A DNA stretch of 64,000 nucleotides from an uncultured Planctomycetota bacterium (GCA_963784995.1 CAWATZ010000006.1:8853-72852), one strand, 5' to 3'; shown: positions 28,008 through 48,663, numbered from the stretch's first letter. Translations and numbers: made by a program. The notes: generated from the letters alone by a model not told the origin.

Positions 28008-31596
<3,589 letters not shown>

Positions 31597-31995: not shown

Positions 31996-33595
31996 ATGAG
32001 CTGGTTGAGCAAATTCTTCGGAAGGTCCCCGGACCCCCTGAAGCCACCCCCCGGCACCGTTCCGGCGACCCTGTCCCTCGTGCCGGGGCAACTTTCCGTG
32101 CGGGTTTGCCGGCACAGCATCCCCAATGGTGCCGAACAAATCCCCTGCTGGACCTACGTTACAGACGGGCTCTGGAAACTCGGCCAGAAGGAGTTGATCT
32201 TCTCGCTGCGCCGCCGGCCGGAAGAGGAGCCCCAGGCCTTTCCGCAAGATCCAGTGCAGTTCTTCCTGCAAGTGCATCGCCTGGCCCAGGAGGGGCGGCT
32301 CGGTCGATGCCGGCGGACACACGTGCTTGCGCAGCCCCGCGGGCTTCCTGGGTACGACCGAGCTGACGGGATTCACTTACGTCCGGCCTGAGCTGCTCCC
32401 GGGAGTGGAGTTGCCTCCTCTGGACCGCGCCCTCACCGCGCTGCTGCTGACGAAAGAGGAGGCCGAGGTGGTTCAGACCCTTGGCGGCTACCGTCTGACC
32501 GCGCTGCTGGGAGACAGCACCCGCTACTACCCCTGTCCTCCCTGGTCGGAGCGCGGCCGGCGTCCGGTCCTCACCCCGCACGACCTGGCACAGAGCCTGC
32601 TCGGGAAGATGCCCCTGGCCGGTTGCCCGGCCGGCTTTGCCCGCATGTTCCTGCCGCCGCAGGCGCCGACTCCTCCGGGGGTGGACCGGACCCTGCCGGA
32701 AGTCGGCAAGCGCATCACGCTCTTCCTGCCCGAGGAGGTCAGGGCGCAGCTCCAGGAAGCATTGTCGCCCTTCCCCGAGAGCTGGGCCCTCGCCTTGCTC
32801 ACTCAGCCGGACCCGGAAGCGAACGTCCGCCTGGTCTGGCGACCGGGGGACCGGGAGATTCGGACCATCACGCCCCACCACAGTGACGGCAGTTGCCTGA
32901 CGGGCGGCTTTGTCGCGCTGGTGGCCGAGCCCTCGCTTCCCGAGGGAGCGCGGGTGGCCGAGGACGGCTTCCTGGCGGCGTTCGGCCCGACCAATCAGGC
33001 CCGCTTTCGGGAGGCCATCTCGACCGGACAGCCCTTCGTCCTGCCGCCCGCTCAACCGGACCTGGCCGAGTTCTGCCTGGAATGGCTGCCCGCGAAGCCT
33101 TCGCAAGCGCCGGCAAGCCCGGCAGGGACCGAGGCGCCAGACAAGACGGCAGCATTTTTCGTCCATCAGATCATGCTCTATCAGCCGGACGAAGTGCTGC
33201 GTCAGCGTGTCGGCAACGTGTCGATCCTGGGTTCCTTCTTGAAGCGCGTGGAGGAGGAAGCCAATCAGTTCTGGTCCGCGCTGCCGCCTGGGGAAAGCCG
33301 GGCCGTGCTCCTGGTCGTGGCCCTGCGACCCGGAGGCCGCAGCCGCTTCTGGCCGGAGGAGAATCCCCCCGGTCTGGATCGAAGGTCAGTGGAAGAAGTC
33401 GTGGCGCGGCTGCAACGCTTGCCGCCGCCCCTGGTGCATAGCGGGCCGGTGGCCGTGGCGCTCCAGGCGTCGCTGTGGTCCCAGGGCGGCAAGCCCGGAG
33501 GCTGGCCCTTCATCCCCACGGAATGGCAGCAAGCCTGCGGCCAGGAGAACCTCCTGGTCCCCGATGGCGTCCTGAAGATCGTCTGGCCCGAGTAA
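31996..33595 (+). CDS. hypothetical protein (apparent frameshift near 32296-32310; may instead be two genes)
   Basis: MSWLSKFF start with SD. The frame with protein-like composition switches at ggggcggctcgg. The C-terminal 35 aa plus 3' flank are repeated at 42003-42127. Confidence 0.45.
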
Positions 33596-33685
33596 GCTCC
33601 GTCCCTTTGCGGAACCAGGGAGTTGAGATAGAATCATCCAGACCCGGAGAGGTGCCGGAGCGGCCGATCGGGCCGGTCTCGAAAA
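33581..33685 (+). repeat. direct repeat X: last 15 bp of gene, intergenic region, and 5' 40 nt of tRNA-Ser (attL-like)
   Basis: About 97% identical to 48512-48616. Identity ends exactly at the anticodon loop (..ggtctcgaaaa). Confidence 0.7.
33646..33685 (+). pseudogene. truncated tRNA-Ser 5' half (acceptor 5' strand, D-arm, anticodon stem-loop only)
   Basis: ggagaggtgccggagcggccgatcgggccggtctcgaaaa, then diverges. Confidence 0.7.
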
Positions 33686-33770
33686 GCGATACCCAGGTTT
33701 TTCGCACCTCCCGCAAAACACGTCAAACCCCTGCAATTTCAGGGGTTTTCGCATTTCCCGGCTTTCTCTC

Positions 33771-33800
33771 GAAACGTCCCGAAACGTCCCGAAACGCGCC
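33771..33800. repeat. 3 x 10-bp tandem repeat gaaacgtccc at the island's left junction, after a short hairpin (33727-33744) plus T-run
   Basis: Read directly. Confidence 0.5.
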
Positions 33801-33816
33801 CTTCCGGTAGTAAATA

Positions 33817-34053
33817 CTACCGCTCTTCCCGGCAACGGAAAAAACCCGCCAGGATGATTGGCGGGGCCGCCGGGTTCGGGTTATTGTCCTGGCGGTCCAG
33901 CTGCCGCACCAGTTCCAATCGGGCAATCACAACCCGCCAGTAACACGGATCGCACGCCTCTCCCGCGTCCGCCAAGGGGGCGGGGTTGTGCCCGTGTCCC
34001 GTGATTGCCTCACCGCACAGACAGCATGTTCGACGCTCTTGTTTCTCGCTCAT
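33817..34053 (-). CDS. small zinc-ribbon protein (CxxC...CxxC)
   Basis: CCLCGE...CDPCYW. 4-bp overlap with the upstream RHH gene. Confidence 0.4.
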   Translation of the reverse strand: MSEKQERRTCCLCGEAITGHGHNPAPLADAGEACDPCYWRVVIARLELVRQLDRQDNNPNPAAPPIILAGFFRCREER

Positions 34054-34310
34054 TTCCCCCCTCCCTTCCGTGTGCCAGTCTTGCCCTTGCCCTTTGGCCT
34101 ACCGACCGGCTTGACCAGTTCATCGCTCAGCGCATCGGTGGTTGGCGTAGGGGTGAACCCATCTCGCCTCAGCTGCTCCATGATGGAGTATCGGACGTAC
34201 CCTGAAACTGATCGCTCTGTCTTCTCTGCTGCCTGGGTAATCAAATCGATGAACCACGGCTCGGCTACCACATCGAGCCGGGCTCTGCCAGATTTCTTCG
34301 GACGCGGCAT
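34050..34310 (-). CDS. ribbon-helix-helix (CopG/Arc-like) DNA-binding protein
   Basis: RLDVVAEPWFIDLITQAAEKTERSVSGYVRYSIMEQL matches a beta-strand plus two helices. K/G-rich tail. Confidence 0.5.
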   Translation of the reverse strand: MPRPKKSGRARLDVVAEPWFIDLITQAAEKTERSVSGYVRYSIMEQLRRDGFTPTPTTDALSDELVKPVGRPKGKGKTGTRKGGGK

Positions 34311-34490
34311 CTCTCTTTCTCCTGAAAAAGGGAGCGATCCTGTCCCATCTATCATACGGATGAATCCGGAAAGAATCCAGATAATTAAATTGATTTATCA
34401 GGAATCTATCCGTATAATTTATGCAGATGGGTGGCAGGGAATCAGAACCTCTGATCGGGCCAGCCATCAAGCAGACAGGAGCAAGTGACC

Positions 34491-34877
34491 ATGAGCGAGA
34501 ACACGAACGAAGTGAAGGGTCAAAGCCGCAAGGTCTACGCGAGCCTGGAAGATGCCAAGAGCGCTGGCATCCCGAAGGATGAGGAGACCGGCAAGGAACT
34601 GAAGGTGCGGTTGTTCGCCCTCTGCAACAACGGGACTCCGGCCGGCTTCGTGTATGCCAGCCACACGGGAGAGGCAGTGCAGATCGGCGCGAGGGCAGCT
34701 GGTTGGTCAGCTGAAGTGGCTGAGGGCAAGGGTCGGGTCTCTGCTGAAGCTCGGCTCCTGACCATGTCCGATGAGGAGCTGGAGGCCCTGCTGGCGAAGA
34801 GGAAGGCCGCTCTGAACGGCAGCAACACGACCAGCGAGGAGAAGCCGGCAGCGAAGAAGCCCGGCAAGGGCAAGTAG
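34491..34877 (+). CDS. hypothetical protein
   Basis: SD aggag 9 nt upstream of the ATG. Lys-rich tail. Confidence 0.45.
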   Translation: MSENTNEVKGQSRKVYASLEDAKSAGIPKDEETGKELKVRLFALCNNGTPAGFVYASHTGEAVQIGARAAGWSAEVAEGKGRVSAEARLLTMSDEELEALLAKRKAALNGSNTTSEEKPAAKKPGKGK

Positions 34878-34901
34878 CCGCTGAGAGGAAGTGGGTGGGG
34901 A

Positions 34902-35132
34902 GTGTTGGTCAAGCTCAACCTCATCACCCTGAACGCGGTCAACCGCGTCAAGGTCAGCAGACAGCAAGCCCGGCAGCTGGTCCTCGCCAGCCAGTTCATC
35001 AGGCTCGGTTTCTGGTCTGGTTGCGACTGGATGACGGTGGATGTCAGCAAGCGCCACGCACTCGGCATCGTTCGAGGTCTGAGGCAATTTGACCTGATTA
35101 CCGGATACGGCGGCTGCCAGATCAACCTGTGA
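34902..35132 (+). CDS. hypothetical small protein
   Basis: GTG start after an SD-like gagagg. Confidence 0.3.
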   Translation: MLVKLNLITLNAVNRVKVSRQQARQLVLASQFIRLGFWSGCDWMTVDVSKRHALGIVRGLRQFDLITGYGGCQINL

Positions 35133-35394
35133 TCTGCACTGCAACCAGGGGGCCTCGCCCAGCCCCTTCCCTCTCATCCACACAACCATCAGGAGTACAG
35201 ACCATGACGAAAGCAAGCGCGGCGGCGAGGGAAGGGCGGACGATTCGGGGGACGGACCACGATTCTCGGACATGGCTTTCCTCCTGAACAGGTAATGTGG
35301 TTGTGTGTTCAGTATGAACACCAGATCATTGACTGATTCCGATTGCCCTGTCAACCAAAAAAAAGAAAAAAGTGGTTTCGGGCGGCGAGCCGTG

Positions 35395-35480
35395 GTATCC
35401 TAAATCAGTGGTGGGATACAGAACAACAACCGTGCTAGGCAGCCGAGCCGTGCTATCCAGCCGGGCCGTGATAGGCAACC
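35395..35480. promoter_or_regulatory. about 18-bp imperfect direct repeats (iteron/operator-like) preceded by an A-rich tract
   Basis: cgtgctaggcagccgagc / cgtgctatccagccgggc / cgtgataggcaaccgagc. A-tract caaccaaaaaaaagaaaaaag at 35357-35377. Confidence 0.3.
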
Positions 35481-35485
35481 GAGCC

Positions 35486-35761
35486 ATGCCGAATGCCGAG
35501 ACAGCGTTCGTCGCCAAGATCCGCGAGCAGATCGCGTTCTTGCGGGACGAGGAATACGCCTACATGGAGATGCATGTGTACGTCTCAGGTATCGCTGAGC
35601 CTTGGGTGTTCGGGCCGGATGACGAGTTCGACTTTGATGGCGAGGAGATCCTAGTCGTGCGACTGGGGCCGACGAGCGAAAACGAGAACCAAGGTGTGCC
35701 GGAGTACGTCTTCCCGCTCCGGCAGGTGGTGGCGACCGAACTGGCGATCAGCGAGGAGTGA
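35486..35761 (+). CDS. hypothetical protein
   Basis: ATG at 35486. Acidic protein. Confidence 0.45.
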   Translation: MPNAETAFVAKIREQIAFLRDEEYAYMEMHVYVSGIAEPWVFGPDDEFDFDGEEILVVRLGPTSENENQGVPEYVFPLRQVVATELAISEE

Positions 35762-35766
35762 GGTCG

Positions 35767-36042
35767 ATGCGGTGGATACTGCCAGGTGGGGCTGTGCTGG
35801 ACGGGGGTAGCCGGAATAGTGCCGAACAGCTGGTGGCATGCCGGCCACTGGTCGCGGTATTGGAGCAGAGGAGCCGGCCGAAGCTGGACGAGCGGCGCGC
35901 AAGTGTGATCCTGAAGCGAACGCAATGCCGGCGCTACGGCTGCTGGGGTAGACTCGCCCCAATGAAGCGAGATAGCGCTGGGCGTGACTTGAAATGTATG
36001 GATTGTGGTTGTCCGGACTGGTCAGATCCCCGGAAACTGTGA
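35767..36042 (+). CDS. hypothetical zinc-ribbon protein
   Basis: SD gaggag. C-terminal CRRYGCW...CMDCGC. Confidence 0.45.
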   Translation: MRWILPGGAVLDGGSRNSAEQLVACRPLVAVLEQRSRPKLDERRASVILKRTQCRRYGCWGRLAPMKRDSAGRDLKCMDCGCPDWSDPRKL

Positions 36043-36082
36043 CTGCCTGGTTGTACTGTGACTGCCGGGGTCTATTTGTTTG

Positions 36083-38650
36083 TCACGAGCCTTTCTGCTT
36101 CAGCCCACTTTTGGTTACTGAGATGTGCCCTGTTGTCATGTCAATGTCAAACTGCTTCTTGACGTACTCCTGGATAGCAGTAGGCCCTGCATCTGGCCCC
36201 AATGCCGTCAGCGCACGACGAACCGCCTCAATCTTAGTAATCTCTTCCTGTTGCCCCTGCCTTATTGTTTCGATCCCCGGAGCTGTCTGTGAGCTGCCAA
36301 TCCTTGCTTGACCTTTACCTGGCACCATACCCCGTGCCACTTCCAACTGCTTGATCTGGTCCTCTGTAAGGGCTGCCGGCTCCCCCTCCCAACCATTTCG
36401 TCCCTTATACATCTGAGCGCGGATAGACGAATCAGGGACTGTTTCCAGAGCGAGGTTATTCAAGGCATTTCGGGCATCCTGGAAAGACCAGCCCTCACGT
36501 CCCATCCACATCAGCACTCTCTTGACAGGGTAGCCGAAGAGTTGATACCGCTGCGCACCCATAGTCAGGGTGGCACCCTTCTTGCCCAGCCGGGTAAGGA
36601 CTTCCCCTTTGCCGGTCAGTTCACGCCATCTTTTCCCACCAGGCCCGCTGGCCCGTAGAGCCGCTTCGAGGTGGGCAATGTGTTCAGGAGCCAGCTTGGC
36701 ATGTTTCCCCTGACCCTTGCGTCCGAAATACAGGCAGGTGTTGATACAGCCGTCGCTGACCATCTCCCGCTTCAAGTGGTTCAAGGTAGGCCGAGCGTCT
36801 TTGTATGTCCAACCATGAGCGCCCATCCACCGGATGACCGAAGAGACTGAGAATCGTCCAAACAAGGGAGGAATCTTGCCGGTCCCGCCATCCTTATCTC
36901 CACCATTCACGGGCCCCTTGTCTTTTCCTTGTGGTATCGCGAGGTCGTCTAGGTGGGGAATTAGGGCTTTCTCCAGCCGAATCATCGCGTCGATCATAGC
37001 ATCCTGAATCGCTGGCCATTTCGACTCCTGGCTCTCGTAGCCGCCAAGTGTGATGAGGTGAGCAATGCGGTAAGCCTGCTTCTGCTGGCGGCGGCGCCAG
37101 AACAACTTGCCGCCGAATGTCTTCTCGATCTCTTCCTTTTGGCAGTGTAGATACCGGAAAATGTACTTGTTTTCCTGCTCCTTCCCTGCTCCACGGTTGA
37201 TATACAACTCGACACGACCCCGTTGCTGTTGGATGACGTAGACGAAGGGCACTCCCCGCAAGCCGAAACTGGCCCTGATAAATTGGGACTCGCCAGGGGT
37301 GATGTTTGTGTGCAGCGTAGTCTTCACTTTTGGACGGCTGAGAAGCCCTTGCCAGAATCTTTCGGCCGTCTTGTTGGACGAGGAGATAATACCGGAGCCA
37401 GGATCTGCGGGAGGCGGGAGAAGTTGATCTACGGGTAATAAGCCCGGAACGGACCCTGCTGGCGTCCAGGCAGGCATGCCAGGTTTCCAAATCAATGAAG
37501 CCTGGGTCAATTGGCCTCCCTGGTGCAACCGGCGCAACTCATCTGCAAGGACAGGACCACGCGAAACACCGCTTGCGTCAAGATAATGCCAGAGGTCAAC
37601 CAGCGGAGGACTCACTCCTTCCGAGGGACCAGCAGGCTTCGGTCCTGTCGGTGGCGTGGGAACGAGGCTGCTGATCCGGTCTGCCAGGGCGGCGGCGTCT
37701 TTCGGCCGATCCTCGGGATTATGCTCGAAGCACTGCTCCAACAGCGCTATCATCTCCGCAGGAACACCTTGCTCGGCGAACCTCTTCTTCCACGCCCCTC
37801 CGAGCGGAGGCTCCTTGGTAGGATCGCCCATCAGCAGCTGATACCACATCACTCCCAGGGCATGAACGTCGTCACGGGGGTCCGCTTGATCGCCTGCCTT
37901 CTGCTGCGGTGAGGCATACAGCGGAGTGCAGGAACCGTGGGCCATCGTCGCCAGCAGATCCCCCTTGCTCGTCGTCCCATAGCGCTCGGCGAGCACTTGC
38001 GTCTCAGCTACTATTGCTCCGATACCGAAGTCAGCAACAAGGAAAGTCCACCGCCCCTCTTTCGTTCGTCTGGCCAGCACGTTGGCTGGTTTTAGGTCTC
38101 GGTGGATCACTGGAGGGGATAAGCGGTGCATCCTGCCGACCGTCTCGGCCAGTACGCGAATGATAGTGCGGGCTTGTTCGACCCGCTTCTCGGTAGGTAA
38201 CTTCTGCATGCGCCGGATCAGGCTGGTCAGGTCTCCACCCTCAATGTACTCGTATTCCAGGCAGATCGGTTCGGTGTCGAGATAGGCATTCTTGAGCGTA
38301 ACGATCCCTTTCTCGACCTTTTGCATCATGACTTGATCGAGTAGAGCTGCTTCATGACGCAACGATGTTGCAGCCGTTAGATCCAGGCAGAATTTAAGAG
38401 CGACAGGCGGAATGCCTTTGAACTGGGTATGCTGGGCCTTCCAGACCTCCCCAAAGCCGCCGACACCGAGCAACTGGGTCAGTTGCCAGGGGACGCCTGG
38501 TAACGGTTTGTCTCCGACCTTGAACCTTGGCAAGCGGGACGGCAACAGCGGAACCAGATCCTTTGCACTTTTGAGCGTGAAGTAGCTTGGCACGGTGGTT
38601 CCGGTCGGATCTTCGGGCCGGCGGAACGAGCTGCGAATCCAGCCCGGCAC
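36083..38650 (-). CDS. Ser/Thr protein kinase fused to a DUF4268-like domain and C-terminal repeat domains
   Basis: LGVGGFGEVWKA, HRDLKPANVL, DFG. YINRGAGKEQENKYIFRYL...KEEIEKTFGGKLFW resembles DUF4268. Two about 65-aa repeats (VIRWMGAHGWTYKDARPTLNHL... / VLMWMGREGWSFQDARNALNNL...). GC about 55%. Confidence 0.8.
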   Translation of the reverse strand: MPGWIRSSFRRPEDPTGTTVPSYFTLKSAKDLVPLLPSRLPRFKVGDKPLPGVPWQLTQLLGVGGFGEVWKAQHTQFKGIPPVALKFCLDLTAATSLRHEAALLDQVMMQKVEKGIVTLKNAYLDTEPICLEYEYIEGGDLTSLIRRMQKLPTEKRVEQARTIIRVLAETVGRMHRLSPPVIHRDLKPANVLARRTKEGRWTFLVADFGIGAIVAETQVLAERYGTTSKGDLLATMAHGSCTPLYASPQQKAGDQADPRDDVHALGVMWYQLLMGDPTKEPPLGGAWKKRFAEQGVPAEMIALLEQCFEHNPEDRPKDAAALADRISSLVPTPPTGPKPAGPSEGVSPPLVDLWHYLDASGVSRGPVLADELRRLHQGGQLTQASLIWKPGMPAWTPAGSVPGLLPVDQLLPPPADPGSGIISSSNKTAERFWQGLLSRPKVKTTLHTNITPGESQFIRASFGLRGVPFVYVIQQQRGRVELYINRGAGKEQENKYIFRYLHCQKEEIEKTFGGKLFWRRRQQKQAYRIAHLITLGGYESQESKWPAIQDAMIDAMIRLEKALIPHLDDLAIPQGKDKGPVNGGDKDGGTGKIPPLFGRFSVSSVIRWMGAHGWTYKDARPTLNHLKREMVSDGCINTCLYFGRKGQGKHAKLAPEHIAHLEAALRASGPGGKRWRELTGKGEVLTRLGKKGATLTMGAQRYQLFGYPVKRVLMWMGREGWSFQDARNALNNLALETVPDSSIRAQMYKGRNGWEGEPAALTEDQIKQLEVARGMVPGKGQARIGSSQTAPGIETIRQGQQEEITKIEAVRRALTALGPDAGPTAIQEYVKKQFDIDMTTGHISVTKSGLKQKGS

Positions 38651-39024
38651 CTCTTCAGTAAGTCTTGATCGCCTCCTTAACTTGTCGGGGGTTGATTGCC
38701 GGCCACTTCCTCAACGACCTGTTCAACTGCTGTCTTGACTTGCTCTCGGCAGGTGCTGCGGCAATCTGCTTTCAGGTCTCCTTCAACCGGACGTGCTGCT
38801 CCTTGGTCTGTTTCAATCGGCCCAGACTTCCTCACTGACCTCCCATAGGACGCCGACAAAGGGTATCTCTCCGAGCAGCGCCTTGAGGCCCTTGCTGACG
38901 AGTGCCCCTCCCAGACAACGCAGAAACCCAAGCATGGGAGTCTCCTGGTGTACCTTCCATCAGCGGTCGGTCGCGTACAAGCGTACCGGTCGGGGGTCCG
39001 GACGATTGAGCTATTCACGGTTTA

Positions 39025-39045
39025 GTTGCGATTATACGCAAGGAG
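39025..39045 (-). promoter_or_regulatory. sigma70-like -10 box (gcgTATAATcgc on the minus strand) about 380 nt upstream of the kinase gene
   Basis: Shares the 11-mer tgcgattatac with a second site at 40566-40576 upstream of the DUF433/DUF5615 operon. Confidence 0.3.
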
Positions 39046-39418
39046 CGTGCCAATCGCTAGTGGATCTGCACGATCTTAGCAGGGATTGGCGCAACCGATG
39101 AGTTAACAGCCTGTTGCATCAACAGGAATCGGTTTCAGTGGAGAGAAGCTGTCAACACCCGGAGCCGCCAAAATGGCAGTCGGCCCTGGAGGCTTGTCAG
39201 TGGCAGCTGTCGAGCCTACATCAGCAAGGAGCGGCCGGTTGCTGGAGGTAGCGATGCTGCGGCGATACGCCGCGGAAGGTCCATCTGCCAGCCAGGCACA
39301 GTTCGCTTCCCGGACCTTTAACAGGTCAAACGCCCGGGAAGCCCGTGCCCACCGGAGGTCAGTAGCTCGGCAGCCGTTATGCGTTGTCGGTTCCAGCTAT
39401 GCAAGAGCAGCCCGTGCT

Positions 39419-39781
39419 TCAGAAGGGCAACCACTCGATTCGATTGTCCCATTCGGCCGGATCGCTTGCCAAGGCAACCATCGCGATGGCCTCGATAGCG
39501 TTAGCAATCAAAGTCCAGGGCTTTAAGACAAAGACACCTGGCATGGGTAGCCCCTGATCGACCCGTTCCAGGGCGAAACTGAGCATGGTACTCTTGTCAT
39601 TCGTGAGTAGAATACGGTTCTGTTCGGCAGCCCAGGCCAAGACGAGCGGGTCAGTAGCCCCATCCCTCCCGGACAGGCCGACAACATCTTGGGCGCGTAT
39701 CAAATCCACGGCTGGGTGGTGCCTGCGTACCCCATCAACCACTCGACCATCGAAGTCCTCATCACTCAGCAGGCGAAGCAT
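39419..39781 (-). CDS. DUF5615 (PIN-like) family protein, putative toxin
   Basis: MLRLLSDEDFDGRVVDGVRRHH...ILLTNDKS pattern. Confidence 0.6.
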   Translation of the reverse strand: MLRLLSDEDFDGRVVDGVRRHHPAVDLIRAQDVVGLSGRDGATDPLVLAWAAEQNRILLTNDKSTMLSFALERVDQGLPMPGVFVLKPWTLIANAIEAIAMVALASDPAEWDNRIEWLPF

Positions 39782-40556: not shown

Positions 40557-40814
40557 TCAGGTAACAACTGCGATTATACCACATCCGTCAGGAGACACCA
40601 CAGGGAAGGGGGCGACCCCAGTCGCAACCAGGTCTCCTTCTTTGGGTTCGGGCGATTCGGGTTTGTCGCTCAGCTCCTTCAGTCCGCACGGAAGAGGGAC
40701 CGGGGTTGGGATGCCAGCGAGTCGTATGGCTTCCTCGATCAGGTCGTCAATGCTGCTCCAGTCGATGTCTGGCCAACCCAACCGGCGGTACTCGGCTTTC
40801 ACAACCTGCATCAC
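40557..40814 (-). CDS. hypothetical protein
   Basis: ORF only. Confidence 0.3.
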   Translation of the reverse strand: MMQVVKAEYRRLGWPDIDWSSIDDLIEEAIRLAGIPTPVPLPCGLKELSDKPESPEPKEGDLVATGVAPFPVVSPDGCGIIAVVT

Positions 40815-40865
40815 TGGACTTTGGATCCAGGGATCCCCCGGCCGGAAGCGGGGCTGAAACAGCCT

Positions 40866-41195
40866 TCAGAACACCGGAGGAGCCGGCCTGCCCGTATCGC
40901 TGAAGATCACCGCAAGGATGCCGTACACCGCGTATTCATCGGTGACCAGGAAGCGAAAACGGTGGCCCCGACCCATCTCGGCATCGAAGATCGACAGTTC
41001 CACCCAGAACATGGGAGACCCGGGAGCCACTCGGAGAGACTCGTCCAGTCGGTAGTGGTCCCCATTCGTGCCGAGCATCGCCCGCAGGTTGGCAAAGATC
41101 CCTTCGCGGGCCAGATCCGAGAGCCCATCGAAATTCTGGTACGTACGCCTCGACATTCTCTCTGACGTCAACGGTGCAGGCCATGCCGGGCTCAC
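40866..41195 (-). CDS. hypothetical protein
   Basis: Real start possibly MSRRTYQNF at 41156. 4-bp overlap with the upstream gene. Confidence 0.4.
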   Translation of the reverse strand: MSPAWPAPLTSERMSRRTYQNFDGLSDLAREGIFANLRAMLGTNGDHYRLDESLRVAPGSPMFWVELSIFDAEMGRGHRFRFLVTDEYAVYGILAVIFSDTGRPAPPVF

Positions 41196-41767
41196 TTCCG
41201 CTTCTTTTGGAGGTCGGCAAGGATCTCGTCCACGGAGCGGAAACCTTCGCGGTTCAGCGGATCGCCCATTCGTGGAATGGAAGCAACGTCAACGGCTGGC
41301 AAGGGAGTCTCGGCCCAGATGCGGAGTGCTTCGGCTTTCTGCAGCAACCCCCGCATTGCCTCCTGGCGATCTTTCAGATGCAGAAACTGCTGAGCCATTC
41401 GTTGATCGAGGGAGGCAGATTGAAGCAGCAAAAGAGTGGCCTCCACACTCTTGAAGATGCCCCGAATCCCCACCTCAACTTCCCGGCATTCCCGAAGCAA
41501 TTTGCGGTGTTCCATGCCCAGTGTCAGCTTGTCACGGAGAAACTCCCAGTGCCGCTCGGCCAGGTCGCTGAGAAGGAAACTGGCATGAATCATTTCCGTG
41601 GCAGCATCCGGCAGGAGAGGTTGCCTCCGACTGGCCTCCAGTTCGTTAGAAGTTCGCCGCAGATTGTCCTGGATCATCTGCGATACGAGTGTATCGATCA
41701 TCAGGTCAATCCTCCATTTGTGACGCCGGGAAGTATCTCCAGCCATCGGCAATCGTCTTGAGATCAA
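41192..41767 (-). CDS. hypothetical protein
   Basis: ORF with protein-like composition. Start possibly MIDTLV at 41701. Confidence 0.4.
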   Translation of the reverse strand: MISRRLPMAGDTSRRHKWRIDLMIDTLVSQMIQDNLRRTSNELEASRRQPLLPDAATEMIHASFLLSDLAERHWEFLRDKLTLGMEHRKLLRECREVEVGIRGIFKSVEATLLLLQSASLDQRMAQQFLHLKDRQEAMRGLLQKAEALRIWAETPLPAVDVASIPRMGDPLNREGFRSVDEILADLQKKRK

Positions 41768-42002
41768 CCTCGCTCACCGGCAATTATCCTGACCGTCACG
41801 GATTTTGGGGGAGTGCCAAAAGAGGGCCCGAAGGGACGGCGTGTGTTGGTGGCGTGTTGGCGGTGTCGCTTTTTTGTCATCGGTGGGGCAAGCACGGACA
41901 CGCCGGGGCGCCTCCTGGCCAGACCGCCAGCATTTTGCGCCGTTGGCGGTGTGGCGGCCTCACCCCTTGGGGCTCGGCGTTCCCTCCTGTGGTACGAGGG
42001 CC

Positions 42003-42127
42003 GCAAGCCCGGAGGCTGGCCCTTCATCCCCACGGAATGGCAGCAAGCCTGCGGCCAGGAGGACCTCCTGGTCCCCGATAGCGTCTTGAAGATCGTCTGG
42101 CCTGAGTAACCGCCGTCCCTTTACGGA
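42003..42127 (+). repeat. repeat Y: orphan copy of the last about 105 bp of gene 31996..33595 plus about 20 bp 3' flank
   Basis: About 94% identical to 33488-33614. Encodes ...GRKPGGWPFIPTEWQQACGQEDLLVPDSVLKIVWPE*. Confidence 0.65.
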
Positions 42128-42326
42128 AGAATTTCGGCCGCCAGCGATTTCCCGCCCAGGCAGGCCTCAAGCGGATCCACCCGGGCCAACAGGTGGCGAG
42201 CCAACTCAGGCCGGGTGCGGACTGCCTGTCGTGCCAGTTCGTTGTTGTCCGTCGTCATGCCGACTCCTCTGGGGATGCCGTCAATGGGAAAGTATCTGTG
42301 CAAGTCCGAAGATTTCGGACGGCGTG

Positions 42327-43280
42327 TTAGCATCCCTGGTGAGGCACTGCACGAACTTGAGGGCACGCATCAGAGTAGCCAGGAGTTCCGCACGGCTCGG
42401 GCGATGGGGTTGCCTGACTGTACTCCAGTGTCCGCCTGAGCAGATCGCAGACGACGACCCCCCCTTTGTTCTGCCGGACCTGCCGCCAGACCCGGTAGCC
42501 GGCCAGGATCGCCTTCTGCCACTCGTACAGTGAGCAGGATCGCACTTCCCTGTCGGACACAATCCCTTGAATGGTCTTTAGCAGCGGGTAATCAAGCGTT
42601 TGCACGCCATCGAGGTAGTCATGCTTGCGGGCGTAATCGTACACGATGGCGGAGATGGCTTCCTCCACGATCTTGGCCCTTGCCCCGTCCTCGACCTCGT
42701 CCACCTTCGGCTTGCTCTTCCGCTTCCGCTTCAGCAGCGACCGCATCATGGGAGACCACCCGAGTATGGCCGCGTGGGCGAGGTGGAACACGTCGTGGAA
42801 TCGGTAGCCGTCGTCCTCGTAAGCGTTGTCAGTCAATGGGTCCCCGATGGCCTTGTCCCCGAGCCAGCAGCGGACTTTCACCTTGTCCCCGATTCTTTCC
42901 TCCCTGATTAGTATCTCGAAACGTCGGGGGAGTTGCTCTTGATCGGGGGAGTCCTCATCGAACAGTCTGCTGGGTTCTGCCCCGCCGCTCGGCCAGCGGT
43001 TCTGAGTCTTCTTCAGGTTGGCCACAGCGACCTCACTCAGGTCCAGATCAAACTTGGTAGCCACGTCAGCGACATACCACAGCAGGTCGCCCAACTCCTC
43101 CGCCATCTGCTCCTTGAACAGCAGGTGGGCGTTCCCGTCCCTGAGATGTTTCTTGTACTCCGCCAGGAGCGTGCCAACCTCGCCGGCCAGCCCCAGCAGA
43201 GGGATCAAGATTCCCCTCTCGTCGTGTGCCGGCGACTGGTCCGTTTCTCCGGCCTTTAACTGGTACTCGCGGAAGTGCAT
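42327..43280 (-). CDS. MazG-family nucleotide pyrophosphohydrolase with about 200-aa C-terminal extension
   Basis: LKAGETDQ...LLGLAGEVGTLLAEYKK...MAEELGDLLWYVADVATKFDLDLSEV is the MazG EExxE/D core. Confidence 0.75.
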   Translation of the reverse strand: MHFREYQLKAGETDQSPAHDERGILIPLLGLAGEVGTLLAEYKKHLRDGNAHLLFKEQMAEELGDLLWYVADVATKFDLDLSEVAVANLKKTQNRWPSGGAEPSRLFDEDSPDQEQLPRRFEILIREERIGDKVKVRCWLGDKAIGDPLTDNAYEDDGYRFHDVFHLAHAAILGWSPMMRSLLKRKRKSKPKVDEVEDGARAKIVEEAISAIVYDYARKHDYLDGVQTLDYPLLKTIQGIVSDREVRSCSLYEWQKAILAGYRVWRQVRQNKGGVVVCDLLRRTLEYSQATPSPEPCGTPGYSDACPQVRAVPHQGC

Positions 43281-43348
43281 GTGTATTCTCTTGAGCAGTA
43301 GGTCAGGGCGACTAACTCCGACAGCGACTTGCACCACGTCTAGCCCTG

Positions 43349-44631
43349 TCACAACTTCAACGCTTGGGTCAGGTAAGCAGCTGCGGCAACAACGAAGCGG
43401 ACGGCCGCCTGCTGGTTGCCAAGTTGCGGCGCGAACCGCAGAAGGCCCAACCCTACAAGGAACAGCGGCACGAGGTACTCGCGGTCCCAGTCTGTCCCGG
43501 AAGGGAAGACCTCCGCTGCCTTCCGGCGGAGCCGCTGGATCAGATCGACGCGACCCTTTAGGTAGGCCCCCAGGTCCGCAGGGGGCGTCTGGTCCCAGGC
43601 GATCCAGGTGCTGAATGACTCGATCTCATCCCCGCGAACCTCGGTCCGGAGGGTCAAGAAGCGGAGATTGCACTCAAGCAGGACGAAGTCCTTCGCGATG
43701 TGCGCCTCTCTTGTGCCCACCCGAAGTCGATGATCGTCGGTGCCCCTCGGGTCTTGAGGATGATGTTGCCAGGGTGCAGGTCGCCGTGGATCGCACCCCG
43801 ATACAGACGGAACAGCTTGGGCCTCAGCTGTTCCACCACCCAGAGCGGGTTGACAGTCTGCCCGCCAGAAGTGAGGGCGAACTTCTCTCCGGTCTTACCC
43901 CAGACTTCGGCCCAGGCGTCACCCCATACCGTCCCAAGGCCTCTCAAGTACCACTCGTATTCCTTACCCACCTCCACCTCGTCGGCAGAGGCGGTCCCGA
44001 ACCGCCGGTGGAAGTTACCGAGAAGGTTGAAAGCGGCCTCAAACGTCGATCCCGCCCGGTCGTTGTCGCCATCTTTCAGAGGCTTGCGGAGGTCTTCGAC
44101 CTCGAACGCCGGGGCAGCCGTCCCCGCAGCGGGGCTGACGAGCGGTACGGAGCCTGTGGCAGAACAGATCGACCACAAGATCCTGTAACCGGTTTGATCC
44201 TCGTCGAAGAGGATGGGGATGGCGAAGTTGTCCTTGGAGTCGTAGGCGAACGGTTTGATGCTCAGGGCGTTCTTGTACTCATCGACAAGCTTGTCGGACT
44301 TGCTGCGGTCCATGGTTTTGACGACAAGCGGGTGCGAGCACAGGGTGCCCGGTTCCTCGAAGGAGAAATGGCCGATCAAGACCAGGCTCCCGCTCTTACC
44401 CTCCATCTGGCCGATGCGGCTGAGGGGAATGAGGGTCAGCCTGACGGCCTTGTCGTGCGAGTCTCGATACTCAGGCAGCCCGAGAGCGGGCCAGACCGCC
44501 TCCTGGAACCCCCAGACGGCCTCGGCCCCTTGCCCGCCCCGAATCTTCGCCATGAGTTGTTCCGCGGAAAGACGGATGGCATCCAGCCGGTCCGCTTCCG
44601 TGGCCTCAAAGTTCACCTTCAGGGACACCAT
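43349..44631 (-). CDS. aminoglycoside-phosphotransferase / protein-kinase-like fold kinase (frameshift at about 43660-43690 in a G-run)
   Basis: IHGDLHPGNIIL...IIDFGW is an APH/ChoK catalytic loop plus DFG. Frame switches between ORFs 43654..44631 and 43349..43720 at ttcgggtggg. Confidence 0.6.
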
Positions 44632-44652
44632 GTTCAGTTCCTTGGGTGGTGC

Positions 44653-46419
44653 TTACCTTGGCCGCTCATCTTGTCGTTGGGCCGCCTCGACAGCCTCATT
44701 GATGCCCCATTTGGGCGGATACCAGAGGCTGAGTGGATTCGAGTGGGGCCTGTAGGTCTGTTTGATCCGCGTCCGGCCGCTGATTCCCTGGACCTCAGGG
44801 TGGGCCAACCGGGCGTACTTGTCGGTTTCGCAGAATAGGTTCTGGCAGTCGATCAGCTGCAAGGGGCGACCCCACAGGTCGCGGAACGGGATGCCCAGTC
44901 GCTCCAACTCCCGCTCTTGGTTGTCGGCCACCCAGCGGATGATGTCGGCCTCGCTTAGACCGCCCAGGCTGGTGAAGCACTTGCGGATGCCGTCGCGAGC
45001 CCCCGGCCCCGGCACCACGAACTGCATCTCCGTGAAGTTGGTGAGGGTGCTGTAGTTCAGATCGGTGACATACTGATAAGCCAGGAAGTCGCCGATCATC
45101 GGGTAGGAGACGACCAGCTCGAACGCTTGCCGCATGTTGCGGCAGGCAGCGATCCGCCTGGGCAGGGCATCTTGCATCATTTTCTGGAGCAGGCGGAGAT
45201 GGCTGCGGTGCTTGCGGTGGTTCTCATAGTCACCTGAGCCCGAAGGCATGATGTACGCCCCGGAATAGATTGCCTGCCCCCTTTCCAGGGCACGGTCGAA
45301 CACCGCCGCATACCGTTCGAGGTCGAAGTCCGCATACCGGGGCGTACCCAGCTCCTGCTCCAGCATCTCCCAGGTCTCAACCTTGTTGAACAGCTTGAAC
45401 ATGATCGTGCGGAAGAACACCTCTTCCGCCGCCTGGTCATGCTGGTAGATGACCTTGCGGATCAGGTACTGGCTGACCCGGTCAGAGGCCCGGTAGGCGT
45501 TGCAAAACTTGTACCGGGCAATGATTGGGTCGCTCGTCAGGGGCTGCATTCCCTCCAGCCGGCGGAAGAAAACCTCCTGCCGTTCCGCCGCGAACTTCCA
45601 GTAGGTACTGTACACCTCCGATGGCCTCGCTGGAGCCATCGGACAGATGACCTGCGGCGGTGGCCGTTCCTCAGGGGTTGGCCTGGCGGGCGGTGACTCT
45701 GCCTTGGCCGACAGCAGCGAGAACAGGTCGGGCACCTCGCGTGTCGGCGTGGTGCGGCGGGTGGTCGCCTTGCCCGCTCTCCCCGACCTTCTGGGGGCGG
45801 CGACCCGGTAGCGGACGCCGTCGATTGCCTCGATGGCTAGACGAACGGCGTCGGCAACCGTCCCCTCGTTGTCAAGGCGGACGACGCAGTGGCGGGCCTC
45901 CTCCGCCAAGGCCAGCTCATGGTAGGCGGGCAGCAGCTTCGACCCGAGGTCCGTCGGCTCGCTCTCCTCGCAACGGGAGGGCCGCTGGACAAGGAACACC
46001 ACCGCCGGCTCCACGTTGCCCCACTCCGCTCTCTCCATGGCGATCATGGCGTCAAGCGTCTTGGGAGCAGCCCCGCTGGCAAGGCCGTAGGCCCAGGTGG
46101 ACCACCAGAAACGGTCCAGCACCACCCAGCGGCCTCCGGTGAGGGCCGGCAGGATTCGGCCGGCGATGGCGGCGAGGTGAGCCGCGACGTGCAACAGTTG
46201 GAGGCTGGCTGGGGGGATGTTCGCAATACCGAACAGGCCGGGGTCGTGGTGCAACTGGTAGACGTGCCAGCCCAGTGTGCCGGGCTCGCGGCCGGGGAAT
46301 GCCAGCAGGTCACAAGGCGTGCCGCGGCCGCTCAGCACAGCAGCGACCTCTTTCGCCAGGGTGCTCTTGCCGACTCCGTCAGGCCCCTCGAAGACGATCA
46401 ACTTACCCGGCGTTGCCAT
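44653..46419 (-). CDS. thymidylate-kinase-like P-loop kinase fused to about 400-aa domain of unknown function
   Basis: LIVFEGPDGVGKSTLAKE (Walker A) and VVLDRFWWSTWAY (Tmk DR[Y/F] lid motif). C-terminal 400 aa with no recognised motif. Confidence 0.7.
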   Translation of the reverse strand: MATPGKLIVFEGPDGVGKSTLAKEVAAVLSGRGTPCDLLAFPGREPGTLGWHVYQLHHDPGLFGIANIPPASLQLLHVAAHLAAIAGRILPALTGGRWVVLDRFWWSTWAYGLASGAAPKTLDAMIAMERAEWGNVEPAVVFLVQRPSRCEESEPTDLGSKLLPAYHELALAEEARHCVVRLDNEGTVADAVRLAIEAIDGVRYRVAAPRRSGRAGKATTRRTTPTREVPDLFSLLSAKAESPPARPTPEERPPPQVICPMAPARPSEVYSTYWKFAAERQEVFFRRLEGMQPLTSDPIIARYKFCNAYRASDRVSQYLIRKVIYQHDQAAEEVFFRTIMFKLFNKVETWEMLEQELGTPRYADFDLERYAAVFDRALERGQAIYSGAYIMPSGSGDYENHRKHRSHLRLLQKMMQDALPRRIAACRNMRQAFELVVSYPMIGDFLAYQYVTDLNYSTLTNFTEMQFVVPGPGARDGIRKCFTSLGGLSEADIIRWVADNQERELERLGIPFRDLWGRPLQLIDCQNLFCETDKYARLAHPEVQGISGRTRIKQTYRPHSNPLSLWYPPKWGINEAVEAAQRQDERPR

Positions 46420-47230
46420 TGTCCCCTCCCGCCCCGGTTTCCTGCTGTACGAGCTGGGCCTGCCCCTGGAGCAGCCCTTGCAGGTCCGCTGCGAACACCT
46501 GCAACTGGGTCTTCGCCACGCCTCCCAGACGGGCCGTACTGATGTTGCAAGTGAACTGCGTCAGCTCGCGGTTCACCTGACCGGCAACAAATTGACCGAG
46601 CCGGTATAGCCCCAGGTAGTTCCCGTACCCCTTCTCGAAGAGGAACTGGATTGGGTAGGAGGCATTGATGGCCAGCCCACCCCGGTCGAGCGGGGTAAAG
46701 GTGACATGGTGCAGACAAGGGAAGCCGCGGCGACGTTGTCGGGTGTGGTCCCTGGCGGGGTCGAACACGTTCGCCACAAAGGCCGTTGGGCGGCGGACGC
46801 CCTCCCCCCAGATCCGGATCAGGTGCTCAATCTGGTTACCATCTACGGGGCGGTCGCCTCCGAAGGCGATCATTCGCTCGAAGTACTGCCCGTTCCGATT
46901 TTCACGCCGCCGGAGCAGCCTGGGCAGCATCCGCTGATACCTGCCATACAGGGCGTGCCGGTCGCTGCTCCGTTCCCAGAGATTGCTGGGGAAGATGGTG
47001 TTGGCGACCGTGTGGCACTCGTACAGGCCAAGCCGCACAAGCTCTTGGTCCAGGCGGTTCCGGATGCTCGCGACCTCAGCCGGCACGCCGTCCTCCATAC
47101 CGGTAATCTCGATGAACAGCGGGGAGATCCCATTCACGCCCCGCCGCATGAGAGCCAGGAAAGCCCTGGCCCACGCGATGCTCAGGTTGGACTCACGGAT
47201 CAAGGGCATCATCGTCCTCCTCTGGCTCAT
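46403..47230 (-). CDS. thymidylate-synthase-fold protein (ThyA / dNMP hydroxymethylase superfamily), divergent
   Basis: DGNQIEHLI, RRPTAFVANVFD and RRRGFPCLHHVTF align with ThyA DGRHIDQI / SRRIIVSAWN / LAPCHAFFQFYV, including the catalytic Cys. Weak overall similarity. Confidence 0.5.
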   Translation of the reverse strand: MSQRRTMMPLIRESNLSIAWARAFLALMRRGVNGISPLFIEITGMEDGVPAEVASIRNRLDQELVRLGLYECHTVANTIFPSNLWERSSDRHALYGRYQRMLPRLLRRRENRNGQYFERMIAFGGDRPVDGNQIEHLIRIWGEGVRRPTAFVANVFDPARDHTRQRRRGFPCLHHVTFTPLDRGGLAINASYPIQFLFEKGYGNYLGLYRLGQFVAGQVNRELTQFTCNISTARLGGVAKTQLQVFAADLQGLLQGQAQLVQQETGAGGDNGNAG

Positions 47231-48068
47231 GTCGGAATCGCGCCCTGCCGGCGAAGCCCTGCCGCGACACGCGAACGAAGCTGGCCCAGCCGGTTTCGGG
47301 GTTCAGCAGCCGCCCCCGGCCCGGCTTTCTGCCCCGGAAGATCCTGTCGAACAGGAAGCTGGTGTCGATCATCACACAGGCCCCTTCGTGGACGACACCT
47401 GGCGGGCACAGGATCGCGTCCCCAGCCTGGATGTCGATGGCACGGTCCAGCCAGTTGTCGCCCGCCACGACGAGGTGATGTGGGCAGTCGGCCCCCAGCA
47501 GACCCGACTTGATCGTCCTGGGTGCCACCTTCTGAAGGGCCAGGGCACGGGTGCGTTCGAGCAGGCGGAGGTTGAGCCACACGTGGGTGACGAGGGCTTC
47601 GTAGCCCACGCCCAGCCAGGTAGCCACCTCGTAAACCTGCTCAGCCGTCGCGTCTCCCGGAGAACATCCGCGTAGCTCGAAACCCCGAACCACGGCCGGT
47701 CTGGGCATGAGCAGGAAGCCGCTGAAACACTCGGCCAGGAACTCCTCCTCGCTGTCTTCCTGTCGCTCGCTGTCATGCACCTCGTCGATCCTGGAGCCGT
47801 GACCATAGACATGGTGTCCCAGCTCATGGCCGCCGGTATAAGCCTGCCGCCCCGGCGGTCGCAGGCTCGAGATGACCATGCTGGGGCCGGGAGTCTTGAC
47901 GTACGTGCCCTCCAGGCGGGGGATGGCTTTGAACCAGACATCGACCCCCATCCCCTCCGCGAGATCGTAGACGCAGAGGGGCACGTCAAGGCCGAGCCCG
48001 GCATCACGGCGGACGCGACATGCACGAGTCAGGGCGTCCCTGGCCAACCGCCGCTTGTCGAGGGTCAT
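47193..48068 (-). CDS. ImmA/IrrE-family metallopeptidase (DUF955) with C-terminal extension
   Basis: HELGHHVYGH HExxH motif. 4-bp overlap with the XRE gene. Confidence 0.75.
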   Translation of the reverse strand: MTLDKRRLARDALTRACRVRRDAGLGLDVPLCVYDLAEGMGVDVWFKAIPRLEGTYVKTPGPSMVISSLRPPGRQAYTGGHELGHHVYGHGSRIDEVHDSERQEDSEEEFLAECFSGFLLMPRPAVVRGFELRGCSPGDATAEQVYEVATWLGVGYEALVTHVWLNLRLLERTRALALQKVAPRTIKSGLLGADCPHHLVVAGDNWLDRAIDIQAGDAILCPPGVVHEGACVMIDTSFLFDRIFRGRKPGRGRLLNPETGWASFVRVSRQGFAGRARFRHEPEEDDDALDP

Positions 48069-48412
48069 CCCTCCTCCTTCCGCTTGAGGCTTGCAAGGAG
48101 CTGCATCAGCTGGTCAAGGTCTTCCTGCCTCATGGTACTCAGCTTGCGGGCTGCCATCTCATAGCGGACTCGGCTCATGTCGCCGGCATCACCATCGAGC
48201 AGCCAGGCAACGCTCACGCCGTAGGTGTCGGCCAGCGTAGCCAGCTCCTCGGCGGAAACGCTCCGACGGCCAGCCTCCATCTCGGAGACCGACGGGCGGT
48301 GGAGCCCCAGTAATCGGGCGACCTGACCCTGCGTCAGGCCAGCCTGTTCGCGGGCAGCCTTGAGCCGGGAGGCGATTGCCATCCTCTTCTCGCTGGCGTC
48401 CACGGCAACCAA
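48065..48412 (-). CDS. XRE-family helix-turn-helix transcriptional regulator
   Basis: LTQGQVARLLGLHRPSVSEMEAGRR HTH. Confidence 0.8.
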   Translation of the reverse strand: MVAVDASEKRMAIASRLKAAREQAGLTQGQVARLLGLHRPSVSEMEAGRRSVSAEELATLADTYGVSVAWLLDGDAGDMSRVRYEMAARKLSTMRQEDLDQLMQLLASLKRKEEG

Positions 48413-48434
48413 TCCTCAATATGAGTGTAATAGT

Positions 48435-48456
48435 AATCTTACCGCTAGGTAAGATT
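48435..48456. promoter_or_regulatory. palindromic operator candidate aatcttacc-gcta-ggtaagatt in an AT-rich promoter region upstream of the XRE gene
   Basis: Perfect 9-bp inverted repeat 23-44 bp upstream of the XRE start. Confidence 0.45.
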
Positions 48457-48511
48457 ATCTTACACGAGGTGTAGGCAACAAGTCAAGGGCAATCGGCCGT
48501 CCTGGCCGAAC

Positions 48512-48616
48512 GTCTGGCCCGAGTAAGCTCCGTCCCTTTACGGAACCAGGGCGTTGAGATAGAATCATCCAGACACGGAGAGGTGCCGGAGCGGCCGATC
48601 GGGCCGGTCTCGAAAA
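48512..48616 (+). repeat. direct repeat Z (attR-like), partner of 33581-33685
   Basis: See repeat X. Confidence 0.7.
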
Positions 48617-48663
48617 CCGGTGTGGCAGCAATGCTACCGAGGGTTCGAATCCCTCCCTCTCCG
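48577..48663 (+). tRNA. tRNA-Ser (anticodon CGA), class II with long variable arm
   Basis: GGAGAGG acceptor. Anticodon stem-loop CCGGT-CTCGAAA-ACCGG. Variable arm TGTGGCAGCAATGCTACC. T-arm GAGGGTTCGAATCCCTC. 3' CCTCTCCG. No encoded CCA. Confidence 0.9.

Follow-up and report, generated by a model that had tools for sequence, protein, structure and literature searches.

The DNA analysed here, called the window below, is a stretch of 64,000 nucleotides (nt) from an uncultured Planctomycetota bacterium (GCA_963784995.1 CAWATZ010000006.1:8853-72852). It holds a gene for tRNA-Ser(CGA), a displaced copy of the 5' half of that gene and, between the two, a candidate genomic island. The intact gene was called by ARAGORN and scored 53.5 bits with the Rfam tRNA model; it is the only tRNA in the window, and the Rfam search of the window returned nothing besides it. 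A repeat finder applied to 30-52 kb gave three families of direct repeats, namely D1 (48677-48826 and 51098-51247, 83% identity), D2 (33473-33614 and 41987-42128, 93% identity) and D3 (33577-33688 and 48508-48619, 96% identity). Repeats that match at 93-97% identity over 105-142 nt are far above chance expectation. The features at the two tRNA junctions, where att stands for attachment site, are as follows.

33577-33688, + strand: R1, left att-type junction (attL-like), with the final 19 nt of X, the gene upstream, the spacer with a promoter and the tRNA 5' half
33646-33685, + strand: orphaned tRNA-Ser 5' half, nt 1-40, within R1
33686-33823 (138 nt), + strand: conserved element arm just inside the left junction
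48508-48619, + strand: R3, right junction block, with the 19-nt tail of X, the spacer with a promoter and tRNA nt 1-40
48577-48664, + strand: intact tRNA-Ser(CGA)

The D3 repeat consists of the last 19 nt of gene X including the stop codon, the entire 50-nt spacer and tRNA nt 1-40. In an ungapped comparison the two copies differ at 3 positions, each of them before the tRNA starts. The identity extends as far as tRNA nt 40, one base beyond the anticodon loop, since the 7-nt loop occupies nt 33-39. After this point the left copy gives way to unrelated DNA and the right copy goes on as the complete tRNA. ARAGORN called no tRNA at R1, and no remnant of a tRNA 3' half was found anywhere in the window. 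The 5' fragment lies 14.9 kb upstream of the intact tRNA on the same strand; the filters of Islander accept either a 5' fragment upstream or a 3' fragment downstream of a tRNA gene in the same orientation (PMC4383910). The block that would be element-borne is the 5' part of the tRNA, and the rebuilt gene lies far from the displaced fragment, as in integration that restores the 5' part of its target. Under an integration model the entire R3 block would be the incoming copy, and the intact tRNA-Ser(CGA) would be a chimera made of an incoming promoter and 5' half and a resident 3' half.

Recurrence of the tRNA break and the integrase-bearing siblings

A scan with a 31-mer of the tRNA 5' half covered one genome per GTDB species and the JGI metagenomes and returned 48 contigs, all of which, where labelled, belong to Gemmataceae, Gemmatales or Planctomycetaceae. 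Nine of the 48 (L007, L014, L021, L030, L033, L035, L038, L042 and L048) hold a 5'-half-only remnant, and all nine diverge within 2 bases of the end of the anticodon loop and then continue as unrelated sequence. Two further remnant contigs, L055 and L056, were obtained through relatives of the integrase described below. L055 is possibly a near-duplicate of the element in L007/L012 (integrase 86% identical, upstream flank matching), and the count of remnants outside the window is given as 10 to allow for this. The break falls at nt 40 in the window and at nt 39-41 in the other remnants, within the sublocation of att sites that is centred on the anticodon loop.

Three complete elements were recovered, with lengths of 14.8 kb (L012/L007), 10.5 kb (L055) and 8.5 kb (L056). 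They share one order, with the upstream 5'-half remnant at one end and the intact tRNA at the other. All three have a Pfam Phage_integrase gene that ends at the remnant or no more than about 120 nt away, and all three have a primase-polymerase of the NrS-1 type. In the contig CAVYVK010000011.1 of a metagenome-assembled genome (MAG), 14.8 kb separate remnant L007 from the intact tRNA-Ser(CGA) L012 downstream of it, and the identity between the two copies is limited to tRNA nt 1-40. A Phage_integrase of 422 amino acids (aa) ends 116 nt from this remnant, and the NrS-1-type primase-polymerase adjoins the intact tRNA. In L055 the intact tRNA is at 718-805, the integrase at 10001-11179 and the remnant at 11296-11334, and the element in L056, which is from a 9.33-Mb genome, has the same layout. 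Because the same break is found in the other remnants, including those that adjoin an integrase, the break in the window is a bona fide and recurrent crossover site. To judge from these sequences, real integrase-bearing elements do have the orientation in which the 5' half is supplied by the element.

Over 1093 nt of upstream flank, L022 and L035, contigs from two soil metagenomes, are 98.9% identical, and they separate at tRNA nt 41. The tRNA is intact in L022 and is a remnant with foreign DNA behind it in L035; the two can be taken as an unoccupied and an occupied allele of a sibling locus. An integrase-like open reading frame (ORF) of distant similarity is also present in L022 (1190-2611) and starts 56 nt downstream of the intact tRNA-Ser(CGA); this tRNA is probably targeted on its 3' side by another element as well.

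The integrase of L007 has 304 homologues at E <= 1e-20. Some of them occupy the classical position: a complete tRNA-Ser(CGA) is overlapped in L058 (10001-11509) and in L059 and L060 (10001-11533) by an integrase that shares 51-52% identity with the sibling one, and a relative with 57% identity overlaps a complete tRNA-Ser(GCT) in L057 (2971-4329). Displaced 3' fragments of these four were not seen within the fetched flanks. Since L057-L060 are relatives in the classical position, one integrase family seems to use the same core in both orientations.

In the right junction block a promoter-like sequence, TTTACG-17-TAGAAT, occupies 48537-48565 and ends 11 nt before the tRNA; it is part of the duplicated block, and the left copy, TTTGCG-17-TAGAAT, differs from it by one base in the -35 hexamer. 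The duplicated block of the integrase-bearing siblings is tRNA-only, and a TAGAAT box is present in the element's own upstream region. The region upstream of the tRNA in L012 is 92% identical to the native upstream region in another MAG, L011, and this resemblance suggests that the integrase-bearing elements carry a promoter captured from a former host.

The arm inside the left junction of the window is shared with other remnants. Taken with the junction, it is 70-78% identical to the sequence that follows the remnants in L014, L042, L048 and L038, and the part at 33737-33823 is 82-85% identical to L014, L042 and L038. The genes beyond the arm in these four contigs are unrelated to those of the window. 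About 5 nt into the arm lies a GTATCC-like motif, which reads GATACC in the window; it is followed by a terminator-like hairpin at 33725-33748 that is composed of an A-tract, a GC stem and a T-tract, so that a run of T follows the stem. Three tandem CGAAACG(T/C) repeats with a 10-bp period occupy 33770-33796, and the palindrome GGTAGTAAATACTACC lies at 33806-33821; written out, the motif reads CGAAACGTCC three times and then GGTAGTANATACTACC. In the window the repeats and the palindrome are each present a single time, and no second copy of the arm repeats was found near the middle repeat (R2, listed below) or near the right end of the island in the window search. By analogy with the P' arm of lambda, they may be arm-type protein-binding sites. 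Folding z scores for the hairpin and its equivalents at the corresponding position are -3.8 in the window, -2.7 in L042, -2.0 in L021 and -3.3 in L030, and the stem sequences differ. The hairpin may act as a terminator that halts transcription from the orphaned native promoter. The arm of the integrase and primase-polymerase (int-primpol) elements is unrelated in sequence to that of the window, which also has neither the family integrase nor the NrS-1-type primase-polymerase of the L007-type int-primpol elements. A weak similarity (E = 0.002) between a 130-aa ORF of the window, g34485, and an ORF in L042 had raised the idea of a core gene of the arm family; it was dropped, as the sole close homologue stands in another context without a tRNA remnant.

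No recombinase was found with any of the searches applied to the window. Pfam searches on 50 ORFs of the window, 20 of them away from the island and 30 in it or next to it, gave no recombinase, transposase or primase, and tblastn of the sibling integrase and primase against the 64 kb gave no match. A hidden Markov model (HMM) built from 120 family integrases was then applied, its filters disabled, to each six-frame segment of 40 aa or more. Its sole match was the antisense of the tRNA itself (E = 0.12), which is explained by the overlap of several family integrases with the tRNA gene. A recombinase hidden in the third low-GC insert, segment C, was considered and rejected: neither of its two proteins matches a family or a solved structure, and no catalytic motif was seen by eye. 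The PHROGs search on 10 ORFs of unassigned function gave no match at E <= 0.001, the single weak match (E 0.0076) being to a family without known function. Viral contigs, scanned for the tRNA half and for the arm palindrome, had no match either. No phage structural, packaging or lysis gene was among the matches, and a prophage origin is not indicated. Among the contigs of the arm family, which offer 0.1-1.5 kb of sequence past the junction, no integrase was seen within 1.0-1.5 kb in the three that are long enough.

These results bear on several statements of the initial annotation. It had described 33581-33685 as repeated at 48512-48616 with 3 mismatches and with the tRNA complete on the right, which matches D3. 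It had read the end of the identity as an integrase crossover in the anticodon loop, a reading now supported by the 10 other remnants that break there, three of them beside a tyrosine integrase. That the duplication comprises the 5' half and its upstream flank agrees both with the content of D3 and with siblings that carry an integrase in the same orientation. The absence of an integrase held over the full 64 kb with Pfam, tblastn and the family HMM. The departure from the usual 3' end is indeed unusual, but its rarity was overstated, since such cases are already documented (PMC6563490, PMC4383910).

Segments, cargo and flanking genes

The interior of the island is divided by a third repeat copy, and a further insert follows the tRNA. 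The three segments are listed below.

33689-41986, no strand assigned: segment A, compositionally foreign cargo
42129-48507, - strand: segment B, single operon with host-like composition
48827-51097, - strand: segment C, third low-GC insert, two genes without assigned family

Each segment was compared with host chunks. Segment A has a GC content of 0.583 against 0.645 +/- 0.009 for host chunks of equal size and a tetranucleotide distance of 0.278 against 0.126 +/- 0.027, a deviation of about 5-7 standard deviations. Segment C is also foreign, with a GC content of 0.575 and a tetranucleotide distance of 0.350 against 0.225 +/- 0.032. Segment B, with a GC content of 0.633 and a tetranucleotide distance of 0.186 against 0.143 +/- 0.028, is not anomalous. 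Patches of 1-2 kb with a GC content of 0.585-0.61, against about 0.65 for the window, were also seen at 3000-5000, 18000-20000 and 54000-55000; their ORFs have no Pfam match or sub-threshold matches only, and they may be further small insertions.

The genes of the three segments with their best assignments are as follows.

36083-38650, - strand: segment A, Ser/Thr kinase-GYF-DUF4268 protein, 855 aa (Pfam Pkinase, GYF_2, DUF4268)
39762-40544, - strand: segment A, DUF433 protein (Pfam)
42121-42366, - strand: segment B, 81-aa ORF
42327-43352, - strand: segment B, MazG+MazG_C (2e-78)
43349-43720, - strand: segment B, 123-aa ORF
43654-44631, - strand: segment B, kinase-like protein
44653-46419, - strand: segment B, deoxynucleoside monophosphate (dNMP) kinase fused to a 5-hydroxymethyldeoxyuridine (5-hmdU) DNA kinase (HMUDK_hel, 6e-110)
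46403-47230, - strand: segment B, weakly ThyA-like protein, 275 aa (NCBIfam thymidylate synthase, 2e-4, far below the curated cutoff)
47193-48068, - strand: segment B, capP-like M78 peptidase (PADLOC capP, 7e-12)
48065-48412, - strand: segment B, capH-like XRE at the operon head (PADLOC capH, 7e-17)
48949-49890, - strand: segment C, 313 aa
49927-50964, - strand: segment C, 345 aa

The Pfam matches in the island are to kinases, nucleotide enzymes and regulators. The 855-aa protein of segment A matches the PADLOC models PD-T4-6, mad6 and PDC-S11, and segment A also holds small ORFs without assigned function. PHROGs, NCBIfam and PDB searches on the unmatched ORFs were uninformative except for the sub-threshold thymidylate synthase match of the 275-aa protein, and the two proteins of segment C had no convincing match in Pfam, PHROGs, NCBIfam, PADLOC or PDB. 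A defence system with a thymidylate synthase, a dNMP kinase and a 5-hmdU DNA kinase has been validated in E. coli, and MazG/MazG-C systems have been predicted by DefensePredictor (PMC13092281). Segment B resembles these systems in its dNMP-kinase-HMUDK_hel fusion, its MazG+MazG_C protein, its weakly ThyA-like protein and its capH/capP-like pair; the likeness is at the level of gene families, and the ThyA-like match lies far under its cutoff. Because it matches defence families in PADLOC and in that study, the cargo is, by family assignment, of an anti-phage defence type.

Several observations on the cargo stand apart from this assignment. The segment B operon resembles the phage toolkit for thymidine hypermodification, and it sits in a bacterial island under regulators of the defence type. 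A GYF_2 protein is encoded in the integrase-bearing sibling L055 (5209-6015), with a weak similarity of 33% over 66 aa to the fusion protein of the window. A two-gene module of segment A (34084-34895) is 80% identical at the nucleotide level to the JGI contigs L052 (506-1311) and L053 (497-1302), where it follows an unidentified gene that reads off the contig end and where no tRNA remnant is present; this difference in context indicates that the module moves between contexts. Upstream of the island, at 25172-30575 on the - strand, a Ser/Thr kinase with AAA_16 (929 aa) stands beside an AAA_16-TPR protein (855 aa), and this pair, outside the island, is of a STAND-like signalling or conflict type.

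The flanking genes and their displaced fragments are given below.

31996-33595, + strand: gene X, host gene on the upstream flank, hypothetical protein, with a frameshift compared with its homologues
41987-42128, + strand: R2, also called Y, diverged 3' end of X (last ~125 nt) and first 33 nt of the spacer
48677-48826, - strand: orphan fragment of gene Z (DUF1501), its 3' end with the last 36 codons and 37 nt downstream
51098-52577, - strand: gene Z (DUF1501, Pfam 1.8e-87), downstream flanking host gene, coding sequence 51135-52577

The homologues of X are proteins of 512-540 aa from Gemmataceae-type metagenomes with at most 59% identity. By tblastn, aa 1 to about 100 are encoded in frame 1 (31996-32385) and the remainder in frame 2 (32288-33592), and the frameshift is either that of a pseudogene or a sequencing error. 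The X protein found no relative among the genome contigs, the contigs of its homologues either lack DNA or show no conserved downstream synteny, and identical-protein look-ups for the X and HMUDK proteins of the window returned no record.

The middle copy Y has neither a tRNA part nor the conserved arm. At the protein level its similarity to X extends back to about 41906 (X aa 360-422, 64%), at a much lower identity than in the repeat itself, and on account of this extension Y is read as the diverged 3' end of an X gene from another lineage and not as a recent local duplicate. In a three-way alignment the copies of X overlap in 35 nt, CGTCTGGCCyGAGTAAsCkCCGTCCCTTTrCGGAA. This 35-nt repeat, identical at 32/35 positions, flanks segment B and spans the stop codon of X and the -35 region. 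Two readings fit the origin of segment B: an integration of its own at an intergenic site, or a second anticodon-loop element. In the latter case a deletion of about 0.3 kb would have taken the rest of the spacer, the 5' half and the arm.

Beyond the tRNA, the orphan Z fragment starts 12 nt after the tRNA and is 81% identical in amino acid sequence to Z aa 445-480. The second D1 copy (51098-51247) is joined to the full Z gene, and the two copies bracket 2.3 kb of low-GC DNA, a layout to be expected of an element that would integrate into the 3' end of Z and restore it. The D1 repeat and the segment C insert, just past the right edge of the island as first drawn, had been missed by the initial annotation.

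Other parts of that annotation need adjustment. The third copy Y, placed at 42003-42127, is real, but it extends over 41987-42128 and at the protein level to about 41906. The island is composite as proposed, whereas the two tandem acquisitions are unproven, with Y lacking the tRNA and the arm and ending 33 nt into the spacer; tandem acquisition is plausible but, because of this lack, needs a later deletion or a different att site, namely the 35-nt repeat around segment B. The claim of a low GC content inside holds for segment A, and also for the then unnoticed segment C, but GC and tetranucleotide analysis shows segment B to be host-like at 0.633. Among the cargo the kinases and nucleotide enzymes were confirmed and the toxin-antitoxin-like pairs were not, a DUF433 domain being all that was found.

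Origin of the island and known counterparts

Taken together, the locus is probably a defence island, mosaic and decayed, that occupies a tRNA-Ser(CGA) hot spot and was formed by a 5'-restoring integration at the anticodon loop and at least two further insertions. In this scheme, an integrative element recombined with the chromosome within the 7-nt anticodon loop of the tRNA gene. The attP of such elements carries the tRNA 5' half beside the crossover in place of the usual 3' part, and for that reason the resident promoter and 5' half were left orphaned upstream at 33646-33685. A working tRNA would be rebuilt downstream, at 48577-48664, from the promoter and 5' half of the element and the resident 3' half, while the terminator-like hairpin inside the left junction would block read-through from the orphaned promoter. 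The interior would have been enlarged by at least one more insertion, segment B, and segment C would be a separate insertion into the adjoining DUF1501 gene at its 3' end. The gene or genes for the recombinase would have been lost later or never carried, so that the island would be fixed unless a recombinase acts in trans. The alternatives named at the outset by the initial annotation, fixed or mobilised in trans, are still the right pair.

Several observations weigh against this scheme. The window holds no integrase, primase or excisionase, pseudogene remnants included, and in this copy the island is without the tyrosine integrase that Islander-type islands have inside. The arm family of the window has never been seen with an integrase in the 0.1-1.5 kb past the junction. 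The duplicated block extends 69 nt upstream of the tRNA into X, whereas that of the integrase-bearing elements covers the tRNA only; this requires that the incoming copy was picked up in a very close relative with X beside the same tRNA, and the capture of the flank is a reconstructed and not an observed step. The composition of segment B is not foreign. R2 is without a tRNA half or an arm, so a second anticodon-loop event is unsupported. Finally, no empty-site allele of the exact locus was found among the X homologues, the best of which is 59% identical.

An island that is still mobile is the main alternative. On such an account the locus would be an integrase-less cargo cassette, moved in trans by co-resident integrases with the same core, for example those of the int-primpol elements, and we consider this unlikely, although several results point towards it. 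The arm is kept over about 90-140 nt at 70-85% identity in five independent members (the window, L014, L038, L042 and L048) beside unrelated cargo, a pattern that speaks for selection on the arm. The lack of an integrase in the first 1.0-1.5 kb past the junction of the three contigs long enough, the wide occurrence of same-core integrases in the clade, as the 304 homologues attest, and the intact attL of the window would all fit. On the other hand, an integrase could sit at the far end of intact members, and no complete member of the arm family was recovered. The arm repeats do not recur near the island's right end, and the int-primpol arm is unrelated in sequence, so that recognition across the two would be hypothetical. 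The broader proposition, that the arm of about 140 bp defines recombinase-less defence-cargo cassettes in Gemmataceae which ride on the int-primpol tRNA-Ser(CGA) integrases, and that this integrase clade switches freely between restoring the 3' part and restoring the promoter and 5' half, is in our view rather improbable. A different history, to which we give a similarly low probability, would make Y and the Z fragment the relics of the resident X and Z genes. Segment A, with its X allele and attL, and segment C, with its Z allele, would then have been imported from a close relative, each by an exchange homologous at one end, in the flank, and illegitimate at the other, inside the resident gene, and 41906-48826 would be the old resident locus. 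The composition does alternate accordingly, from host-like to the foreign segment A, the host-like block of Y, segment B, tRNA and Z fragment, the foreign segment C and again host-like DNA. Y (93% at the nucleotide level) and the Z fragment (83%) have diverged like alleles of another lineage, the similarity of Y at the protein level exceeds the block of high identity, and the block from Y to the Z fragment is contiguous in the order X fragment, tRNA, Z fragment. Yet two independent one-sided illegitimate events are required, which is more ad hoc, and neither the 35-nt repeat around segment B nor the start of R3 only 19 nt into X is explained. The break in the anticodon loop would still call for a site-specific event in the donor, and blocks of 150-250 bp that restore the 3' end of a gene are known for integrases that target protein genes (PMC7192596). 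An artefact or a non-mobile origin, whether a local duplication of the junction between X and the tRNA, a dispersed repeat unrelated to tRNA or a mis-assembly, is effectively refuted. The assembly is apparently of the metagenome type and the frameshift in X could be a sequencing error, but the copies differ by 3-17% and are therefore not collapsed or duplicated reads; the break coincides with that in 10 unrelated contigs, the arm is common to other elements, and the rest of the 64 kb is free of the repeat motifs.

Some of the features of a decayed island are found in known systems. Cis-mobilizable elements (CIMEs) of the ICESt1/ICESt3 family are flanked by att sites, have no recombination or transfer genes of their own and arise by accretion or decay at a shared att site. 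The window copy resembles them in two respects, its att-type flanks and its lack of recombination genes, and by this analogy mobilisation in trans would be a hypothetical counterpart. Tycheposons of Prochlorococcus show tandem accretion, partial tRNA copies within islands and degenerate integrase-less remnants (10.1101/2020.12.28.424599). Like the tycheposon islands, the locus has a tRNA seed, an arrangement with older elements pushed inward, partial target copies that separate the segments and defence or adaptive cargo; unlike them, it has no hallmark recombinase or replication genes, its middle repeat has no tRNA part and it belongs to another phylum.

The orientation has precedents as well. 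Targeting of the 5' part of tRNA genes is "considerably less frequent" (PMC6563490), and the same article cites Zhao & Williams 2002 and archaeal cases for a reversed target orientation. As in the reversed-orientation elements, the crossover of the window lies in the tRNA, with the displaced 5' fragment upstream and a restored gene at the distal end. The window differs from them in having no integrase, in a block that adds a promoter and 19 nt of X, and in its planctomycete host. The anticodon loop is one of the sublocation classes of tyrosine-integrase att sites defined by Williams 2002, as summarised in PMC1635311 and PMC7192596. In the terms of those summaries, the window break is like that class in falling in the 7-nt loop between the symmetric arms of the stem, and unlike its classical cases, which carry the 3' part from the loop to the gene end, in that the element carries nt 1-40.

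The locus belongs to a documented but uncommon kind, and no new mechanism is involved. The rarity of integrations that exchange a tRNA gene's 5' half presumably stems from the need for the element to supply a promoter as well. The locus and its siblings show in sequence how this is solved, with an incoming block that has a promoter and a terminator-like hairpin behind the orphaned promoter. The layout recurs in Gemmataceae, where about one fifth of the sampled contigs with the tRNA-Ser(CGA) 5' half hold the remnant only, and island finders that require an integrase miss integrase-less islands of this 5'-fragment kind. The locus marks a defence-island hot spot in planctomycetes. If the arm does define cassettes that depend on an orientation-switching integrase clade, that clade would offer a natural system for asking why restoration of the 3' part dominates elsewhere.

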